DNA of 64,000 nucleotides from an uncultured Thermoleophilia bacterium (GCA_963705085.1 CAVPIV010000004.1:794193-858192); one strand, 5' to 3'. Counted from the first letter of the stretch, positions 4,261-6,155 are shown. The notes: a model not told the origin generated them from the letters alone. Numbers and translations are program-made.

Positions 4261-6155
4261 TTACTTGTTCTCTTCTTCGTCGATGACTTCGTAGTCGCCC
4301 TCTTCCACGTGCTCGTCGCCGTTGCCGCCGCCGTCGTGCGCCGCGTGCTGCTGCTGGGCCTGCTGGTAGACGGCCTCGGCAAGCTTGTGAGAGGCCTGCA
4401 TGAGGGCATCGGTCTTCGCCTTGATGAGCTCCCCATCGTCGCCCTCGAGCGCGGTCTTGACCTCGGCCGCGGCGGCCTCGATCTCGGCTTTTGTCGCTGC
4501 GTCGACCTTGTCGCCCATGTCGCGCAGCGACTTGTCGGTGCTGTAGACGAGGTTCTCGGCGTTGTTCTTGATGTCGGCCAGCTCGCGCGCCTTCCTGTCC
4601 TCGGCGGCGTGCGACTCGGCGTCCTTCATCATGCGCTCGATGTCCTGCTCGGTGAGGCCGCTGCTGGCGGTGATGGTGATCTTCTGCTCGTTGCCGGTGC
4701 CCAGGTCCTTGGCGCTGACGTGCACGATACCGTTGGCGTCGATGTCGAACGTGACTTCGATCTGCGGAATGCCGCGCGGAGCCGGCGGGATGCCGACGAG
4801 CTGGAACTTGCCGAGCGTCTTGTTGTAGCGCGCCATCTCGCGCTCGCCCTGCAGCACGTGGATCTCGACGCTCGTCTGGTTGTCGTCGGCCGTGCTGAAG
4901 ATCTCGCTGCGCTTGGTCGGGATGGTCGTGTTGCGCTCGATGAGCTTGGTGAACACGTTGCCCTTGGTCTCGATGCCGAGGCTCAGCGGCGTGACGTCGA
5001 GGAGCAGCACGTCCTTGACCTCGCCGGCTAGCACGCCTCCCTGGATGGCGGCGCCCACGGCGACGACCTCGTCGGGGTTGACGCCCTTGTGCGGATCCTT
5101 GCCGACGAGCTGCTTGACCTTCTCCTGCACGGCCGGCACGCGCGTCATGCCGCCAACGAGGATCACGTGATGGATATCGCGGGCGCTGAGGCCGGCGTCC
5201 TTGAGCGCGTTCTGGACGGGCACGACGACGCGCTCGAGCAGGTCGTGCGTGAGCTCGTCGAACTTGGCCCGGCTGAGGGTCCAGGTCGAGGTGCTTGGGC
5301 CCGTTCTCGTCGGCCGTGATGAACGGCAGGTTGATGGTCGACGCGGTCGTGGTTGACAGCTCGATCTTGGCCTTCTCGGCCGCCTCGTTGAGGCGCTGCA
5401 GGGCCATCTTGTCCTTGCTCAGATCGATGCCCTGGCTCTGCTTGAACTCGGCGACCATCCAGTCGACGATGGCCTTGTCGAAGTTGTCGCCGCCGAGGTG
5501 CGTGTCGCCGTTGGTCGAGCGCACCTCGAAGACGCCCTCGCCGAGGTCGAGGATCGAGACGTCGAACGTGCCGCCGCCGAGGTCGAAGACGAGGATGGTC
5601 TGGTCGTGTTCCTTGTCGAGGCCGTAGGCCAGTGCCGCAGCGGTCGGCTCGTTGATGATGCGCTTGACCTCGAGACCGGCGATCTTGCCGGCGTCCTTGG
5701 TGGCCTGGCGCTGGGCGTCGTTGAAGTAGGCCGGCACGGTGATGACCGCCTCGGTGATCTTCTCGCCCAGGTACTCCTCGGCGTCGCGCTTGAGCTTCTG
5801 CAGGATCATCGCCGAGATCTCCGGCGGCGTGTACGTCGTGCCGCCGACGTCGACGACGGCGTCGCCGTTCCCGGCCGCCTGACGTGATAGGGCACGATCG
5901 TCATCTCTTCGGCCGACGTCGCCGTACTTGCGGCCCATGAAGCGCTTGATCGAGAAGACGGTGTTCTCGGGGTTGGTGACCGCCTGACGGCTGGCGACGC
6001 GTGCCCACCAGCCGCTCGCCGCTCTTCGAGAAGGCGACGACCGACGGCGTCGTGCGCCCGCCTTCGCTGTTCGGGATGACTGTCGGCTCGCCGCCTTCGA
6101 GCACGGCCATGCAGCTGTTGGTCGTGCCGAGGTCGATGCCGATGACCTTGCCCAT
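4261..6155 (-). CDS. dnaK: DnaK (Hsp70) with two apparent +1 frameshifts (1-nt insertions); likely sequencing indels, possibly a pseudogene
   Basis: N-terminus [24 protein letters not shown] in one frame, [25 protein letters not shown] in a second, [12 protein letters not shown]-terminal EEVD-like tail in a third. Junctions near 5994-6004 and 5278-5286. SD GGAGGA upstream of ATG 6155. Confidence 0.9.

Follow-up and report, generated by a model that had tools for sequence, protein, structure and literature searches.

The closest described counterparts of the locus analyzed here are the HspR-controlled dnaK operons of actinobacteria, with the canonical gene order dnaK-grpE-dnaJ-hspR accompanied by clpB; the operator of HspR, known as HAIR, has the consensus CTTGAGT-N7-ACTCAAG. 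The interrupted reading frames of the locus can be compared with the frameshift pseudogenes of reductive genomes such as that of Mycobacterium leprae, with programmed +1 ribosomal frameshifting of the prfB type, and with the residual indels and split open reading frames of genomes and metagenome-assembled genomes (MAGs) that were obtained from Nanopore reads only. Real bacterial pseudogenes are subject to a deletion bias; the typical Nanopore homopolymer error also usually is a deletion. Homopolymer regions are given as the classic context of Nanopore errors in PMC9262707.

Here we analyze a stretch of 64,000 nucleotides from an uncultured Thermoleophilia bacterium (hereinafter, the window), with a G+C content of about 69%, in which dnaK and several other genes carry frameshifts. 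The comparison of this sequence with related loci indicates that the frameshifts very probably arose as consensus errors when a metagenome was assembled from long reads, probably Nanopore reads alone, and that the organism most likely possesses one ordinary, functional dnaK that heads a dnaK-hsp20-grpE-dnaJ-hspR-clpB heat-shock operon. We infer that the sequence of the window itself comes from an assembly of the Nanopore-only type.

The dnaK gene and the heat-shock operon

The first 6.2 kb of the window encompass, on the minus strand, a partial clpB gene, hspR, dnaJ, grpE, hsp20 and dnaK:

3-1502, minus strand: clpB, N-terminal 499 residues in one frame, continuing beyond the start of the window
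1527-1979, minus strand: hspR (MerR family), intact, one frame
1984-3120, minus strand: dnaJ, intact, one frame
3124-3681, minus strand: grpE, intact, one frame
3757-4233, minus strand: hsp20, intact, one frame, 86% identical to the L001 ortholog (tblastn) and in synteny with it
4261-6155, minus strand: dnaK, complete from ATG to TAA and divided among three frames in the assembly

The same arrangement, dnaK-hsp20-grpE-dnaJ-hspR-clpB, is found in synteny on L001 and L002, long contigs from MAGs of uncultured Thermoleophilia, both of which encode the closest full-length relative of the window DnaK that we found (P0001, 629 amino acids, 93% identity to the frame-corrected protein). The first-pass annotation described the operon around dnaK as intact, and the comparison bears this out: hsp20, grpE, dnaJ, hspR and the part of clpB that lies in the window each are collinear with the respective ortholog in one frame. 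The start codon of dnaK is the ATG at 6155, eight bases downstream of AAGGAGGAG, and the stop codon is the TAA at 4261-4263. Upstream of dnaK, no match to the HAIR consensus within 3 mismatches was detected. An imperfect palindrome, ACTCAAGtttCTTGAtT, is located at 6180-6215, some 35 nt ahead of the start of dnaK, with the HAIR half-sites in reversed order.

When P0001 (encoded on L001) is compared with the window by tblastn, DnaK is recovered as three collinear pieces in three frames, with 89-95% identity to the ortholog:

6155-5991, minus strand: DnaK piece 1, amino acids 1-57
5998-5282, minus strand: DnaK piece 2, amino acids 53-291
5301-4264, minus strand: DnaK piece 3, amino acids 285-629

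At the DNA level, dnaK of the window and that of L001 are 88.8% identical, with four isolated 1-nt gaps and one 3-nt gap, and our own frameshift-permitting protein-to-DNA alignment agrees with the nucleotide alignment for this gene. An ordinary in-frame difference of 3 nt from L001 (an extra codon) is present at 4345-4347. The 1-nt indels in dnaK number four, three +1 and one -1:

5999-6001, minus strand: indel 1, +1, inserted C, GGCA[C]GCGTC where L001 has GGCA-GCGTC; first frame junction
5914, minus strand: indel 2, +1, inserted G, GACGTC[G]GCCGAA; opens an 11-codon out-of-frame stretch
5876-5881, minus strand: indel 3, -1, CACGTCA-GGCG in the window where L001 has GTCAAGAC; closes the out-of-frame stretch
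5281-5284, minus strand: indel 4, +1, CTG[G]ACCCTC; second frame junction

An example of a sequence pair that differs by the inserted base, taken across an indel site, is GGTGGGCAGCGTCGCC / GGTGGGCACGCGTCGCC. When indel 4 is removed, the sequence HLDLTLSRAKF, the same as in the relatives, is regained. The first reading of this DNA had recovered DnaK in three frames with +1 junctions near 5994-6004 and 5278-5286, and had counted two single-base insertions. Both insertions are present and fall inside those ranges in the DNA as well as the protein alignment, but the count was too low, the +1 at 5914 and the -1 at about 5876-5881 having been missed. These two events are a compensating pair, 33 nt apart, that puts 11 codons out of frame; because the pair restores the frame, it is visible only as an 11-residue nonsense stretch. 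In all orthologs examined, the frame is uninterrupted at the positions of the dnaK indels, and hence the dnaK frameshift is not conserved.

The frame-corrected DnaK contains no internal stops and is a full-length equivalog, scoring 1049.5 bits on NCBIfam NF001413 (cut-off 648; profile positions 1-624 of 625) and 1004.9 bits on TIGR02350 (cut-off 822.55). The pieces as assembled all fall short of the cut-off, with 84, 408 and 478 bits, and cover profile positions 1-53, 57-290 and 311-624, respectively. The dN/dS ratio of dnaK relative to L001 is 0.09 overall and 0.02-0.12 by frame segment. Within the compensated 11-codon stretch, the hidden DnaK frame differs from L001 by 6 synonymous changes and 1 non-synonymous change; therefore, selection acted on this frame and not on the assembled one. 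Aligned with 109 full-length relatives, the window DnaK has no unique changes at near-invariant columns (0-13 in the other sequences) and 5 residues that are found in no other sequence, a number at the upper end of the distribution (the median of the others is 1, and about one in five have at least 5). According to a three-way relative-rate count, the lineage of the window acquired 10 changes and its intact sister 15, most of them conservative. By these sequence-based measures, the corrected dnaK is not decaying and the constraint on it is not relaxed.

Residue 55 (5989-5991) is Ser (AGC) in the window DnaK and Arg (97) or Lys (12) in the 109 aligned relatives. We take this residue to be the counterpart of the catalytic Lys70 of Escherichia coli DnaK, a position where a basic residue is needed for ATP hydrolysis, and a true loss of the Arg/Lys would point to decay. 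A single nucleotide separates the AGC codon from the Arg codon CGC, and the distance to the first inserted base is 9 nt; Ser55 and that base may stem from one local error.

Other frameshifted genes and features of the window

The scan for further events relied on syntenic loci of relatives, blastx tiling and frameshift-aware alignment, and covered 48 genes and 52 kb of coding sequence. Apart from dnaK, frameshifts were located in the following genes:

12285-14190, minus strand: GT4 glycosyltransferase-PHP fusion gene (GT4-PHP), four +1 at about 13947, 13934, 13072-13078 and 12975-12978
18546-19701, plus strand: RimK-like ATP-grasp gene, +1 at about 18705-18711; the first ~43 residues are in the other frame
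20948-22085, minus strand: holB (DNA polymerase III delta'), +1 at about 21017-21020, TAC[C]TTG
22085-22744, minus strand: tmk, +1, inserted T, TGC G[T]AG CGC, at about 22664-22670; the N-terminus with the P-loop is shifted out of frame

The recurrence of the +1 pattern in tmk, reported in the first-pass annotation, is thus upheld by the inserted T (G[T]AG), and the event that was suspected in the ATP-grasp gene now has a position; holB and GT4-PHP are two further broken genes that had gone unnoticed. As assembled, the Glyco_transf_4 domain of GT4-PHP is divided between two frames (Pfam), and the frame-corrected product, of 634 amino acids, lacks stop codons. The shifted part of holB corresponds to the last 23 residues, LNVDQKLALQALFARFEEVAESA, which are well conserved. 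The product of the ATP-grasp gene of the window is matched with 100% identity by a protein in the database, P0121, which is truncated, with 328 amino acids and the N-terminus MAWPPEV, compared to about 377 amino acids in the homologs. P0121 is encoded on a contig of 1,368,786 bp in NCBI and ENA, which we take to be the source of the window; in that case, the frameshift is present in the assembly as deposited. The length of this contig, for an uncultured lineage of the soil type, also suggests long-read assembly.

Several other candidates were rejected. The candidate at 40620-40681 is a tRNA-Leu and non-coding, and those at the topA N-terminus and at gene junctions stem from non-coding sequence translated from stop-to-stop open reading frames. 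The candidates in the PatA_N C-terminus (~6487) and the DUF4446 tail (~42300) lie in low-complexity or poorly conserved sequence where the relatives disagree, and those in the N-terminal extension of a permease are alignment noise, blastx yielding a single frame there.

The window contains 12 events in total, including four in dnaK, four in GT4-PHP and one each in the ATP-grasp gene, holB and tmk, that is, 0.23 per kb (12 in 52 kb of assessed coding sequence). Insertions of +1 account for 11 of the 12, with a single deletion (P = 0.003 against an even split). The occurrence of two genes with four events each has a probability of about 0.001 under a Poisson model, and all 12 events are confined to the interval from 5.2 to 22.7 kb, which accounts for one quarter of the sequence that was assessed (P about 1e-7, calculated post hoc); among the assessed genes, frameshift-aware alignment detected no robust events in 0-5.2 kb or 23-64 kb. 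Once the extra bases are removed, every affected gene yields a clean, conserved, full-length protein. None of the sites in the window lies in a run of at least four identical bases, and contexts such as A[C]GC and G[T]AG are not homopolymeric. An interpretation of the events as the usual homopolymer errors therefore fails, but the consensus-error explanation does not depend on homopolymers. When the contexts of the 11 insertions in the window and of 84 in related MAGs (see below) were read, no shared motif was seen at the insertion sites.

Several features of the window are independent observations. The segment at 16200-19900, which is missing in L003 and L004, loci that otherwise are syntenic with the window, contains a hypothetical gene, a gene for an MttB-family methyltransferase, the RimK-like ATP-grasp gene and a tRNA-Lys (19710-19785), and looks like a variable insertion beside a tRNA. 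The methyltransferase gene (16994-18520) has no in-frame TAG, and its product scores 354 bits, below the cut-off of 525 for the trimethylamine model. At 47899-49980, pylB (methylornithine synthase, TIGR03910, 412.7 bits, cut-off 348) adjoins pylD (TIGR03911, 217 bits, cut-off 150); the two genes are separated by 130 nt, and pylC is not located between them. The ATP-grasp gene was considered as a candidate PylC and rejected. No pylS was seen among the annotated regions of the window, and no tRNA-Pyl was found in the window with ARAGORN and Rfam. The third-position G+C of pylB and pylD is about 0.85, compared to 0.90-0.95 in the neighboring genes. That a Thermoleophilia-like actinobacterium carries genes for pyrrolysine biosynthesis may merit a separate study. 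The region at 50840-61222 encodes CODH, AcsB, both subunits of the corrinoid Fe-S protein, the RACo activator, a CooC-like ATPase and a pterin-binding methyltransferase, apparently a complete CO dehydrogenase/acetyl-CoA synthase cluster. Each gene of this cluster is intact, with 80-90% identity to metagenome contigs such as L083.

Frameshifts in related loci

A topA search identified 62 loci of the same clade, to each of which 12 conserved proteins were aligned. These loci consist of 36 that carry isolate names of the form 'MFD...bin' and come from a collection with a single genome for each species, 24 others and two AnMBR loci. The contig names of the 24 other loci mostly are of the NODE_, k141_ or scaffold type, names from which short-read assembly was deduced. 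The MFD MAGs belong to the Microflora Danica long-read catalogue, for which Nanopore reads were assembled with Flye in the meta and nano-hq settings, followed by a single round of Medaka polishing (PMC12313526); the workflow passages of the same source describe no short-read polishing and mention short reads for coverage binning only. The two groups compare as follows:

36 MFD loci: 108 frameshifts in 424 kb of coding sequence, 0.255 per kb; 84 are +1
24 other loci: 3 frameshifts in 222 kb of coding sequence, 0.014 per kb; 0 are +1

The three events among the 24 other loci are confined to two loci and resemble alignment noise. The two AnMBR MAG loci, on Mb-long contigs, were kept separate and contain one +1 event in 24 kb. 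The MFD events are over-dispersed, with 336 gene instances free of events, 10 with at least three, where only about one is expected under the Poisson model, and one gene with 12. They strike different genes in different MAGs, including topA, pbpA, pknB and a permease gene, and affect 24 of the 36 loci. In the sister MAG L004, +1 events are found in pknB and pbpA (positions 1299 and 2019), both of which are intact in the window. The event rate in the window, the bias toward insertions and the clustering match those of the Nanopore-only group.

The contigs L001 and L002, which come from two samples, encode identical DnaK. Over 21.9 kb, they are separated by 142 substitutions and by four indels of 1 nt; each of these indels is in a C/G run and, judging from the gene table, apparently between called genes. 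Among the MFD loci with +1 frameshifts are L004, L024, L047, L059 and L062. Contig L055 (CAVRJG010000019.1), titled 'uncultured Methanosarcinaceae archaeon MFD05942.bin.1.278', carries a topA locus of the Thermoleophilia type that is 78% identical to that of the window, and probably is a mis-binned contig. Other frameshifted DnaK entries in the protein collection, P0107 and P0104, originate from other assemblies.

Origin of the frameshifts and comparison with known systems

The preference for systematic indel errors of the assembly over decay of dnaK, already expressed in the first-pass annotation, gains from the lack of relaxed constraint, from the 11 insertions among 12 events and from the same pattern in the 36 Nanopore-only loci. 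If the events indeed are consensus errors, the quality of the consensus would have dropped locally, so that errors would cluster. Such a drop might be caused by low local read depth or, alternatively, by the merging of reads from co-existing strains around the strain-variable insertion at 16.2-19.9 kb. Under the latter variant, which differs from low depth in the cause of the artefact, the inserted bases would be real single-nucleotide polymorphisms, with both alleles retained side by side. Several of the insertions can be read as merged codons of this kind, namely GTC/GTG at 5914, TTG/CTG in holB, ACC/GCC at 5283 (where P0002 has Ala) and TAC/TTC in GT4-PHP; furthermore, the cluster of events surrounds the 16.2-19.9 kb segment that is missing from relatives, and polymorphism is reported as a factor in MAG recovery in PMC12313526. 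However, any single inserted base can be read in this manner, and synonymous pairs make up about 3 of 11, against a rough chance estimate of about 2.5 of 11. This reading fits the data but is not discriminating, and we propose the merging of strains only tentatively, as a possible cause.

The concentration of indels in single genes, as in real pseudogenes, speaks against an artefact. With four indels each in dnaK and GT4-PHP and untouched neighbors, the distribution is what neutral decay after a first inactivating event would give, and Ser55 in place of an otherwise invariant Arg/Lys is compatible with the possibility that dnaK, GT4-PHP, holB, tmk and the ATP-grasp gene have very recently become genuine pseudogenes, with a second dnaK elsewhere supplying the chaperone. 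We nevertheless consider this quite improbable. The corrected dnaK shows no relaxed constraint, and neither it nor the corrected GT4-PHP contains stop codons, whereas four neutral indels should be accompanied by many substitutions (as a rough guide, L001 and L002 differ by 142 substitutions per four indels); the excess of insertions, 11 of 12, is opposite to the deletion bias of pseudogenes; and dnaK, tmk and holB, all expected to be essential, would have to be lost simultaneously. Moreover, the same pattern strikes different essential genes in 24 of the 36 Nanopore-only relatives, whereas the 24 other loci lack any +1 event. A tblastn search of the 64-kb window detected no second dnaK. That the indels are real in the cells, so that a free-living Thermoleophilia-like bacterium with recently frameshifted dnaK, tmk and holB would survive thanks to second copies or by reading past the insertions, appears very unlikely. 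Recoding, with slippage of ribosomes or RNA polymerase restoring the frame at each site, has a single point in its favor, the frames downstream of the indels that are still perfectly DnaK-like, but it would require three +1 shifts and one -1 shift within one gene, at sites that have no slippery X XXY YYZ heptamer, prfB-like CUU UGA C or long A/T run, and similar events are scattered over unrelated genes of the window and of related MAGs, at differing positions that for the most part do not recur; we attach practically no weight to this possibility.

Thus, dnaK of the window holds nothing biologically new, and the dnaK operon of the organism almost certainly is normal. The implications of consensus errors concern data quality: frameshifts that are biased toward insertions and clustered in genes affect the coding sequence of the window about once every 4 kb, and many related Nanopore-only MAGs show a similar rate. 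Among the genes called in such MAGs, there will be truncated or split essential genes, with P0121 as an example of a truncated call, and pseudogene counts, pangenome presence/absence calls and protein databases that are built on such MAGs inherit the errors.

Compared with the described systems, the locus resembles the HspR-controlled dnaK operons of actinobacteria in its gene order, which is shared with syntenic relatives, and in the full-length DnaK obtained after correction; it differs in the location of hsp20 between dnaK and grpE, in the window as well as in the relatives, and in that the window has no HAIR match within 3 mismatches upstream of dnaK. The need for a +1 shift to read through one inserted base is reminiscent of programmed frameshifting of the prfB type, but the sites in the window have no shift motif and are not conserved in orthologs, and several sites of both signs are found in one gene. 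Multiple frame-breaking indels within single genes are a feature shared with the pseudogenes of Mycobacterium leprae and other reductive genomes; in contrast to these, the window shows no excess of non-synonymous changes and no stops, is biased toward insertions and is affected in presumably essential genes. The locus also resembles the residual indels and split open reading frames of Nanopore-only genomes and MAGs, with single-base indels in conserved genes on long contigs that are absent from MAGs of the same clade with contig names of the short-read type; unlike textbook, homopolymer-associated Nanopore errors, 11 of the 12 events in the window are +1, the sites are short runs or not homopolymeric, and the events are strongly clustered.
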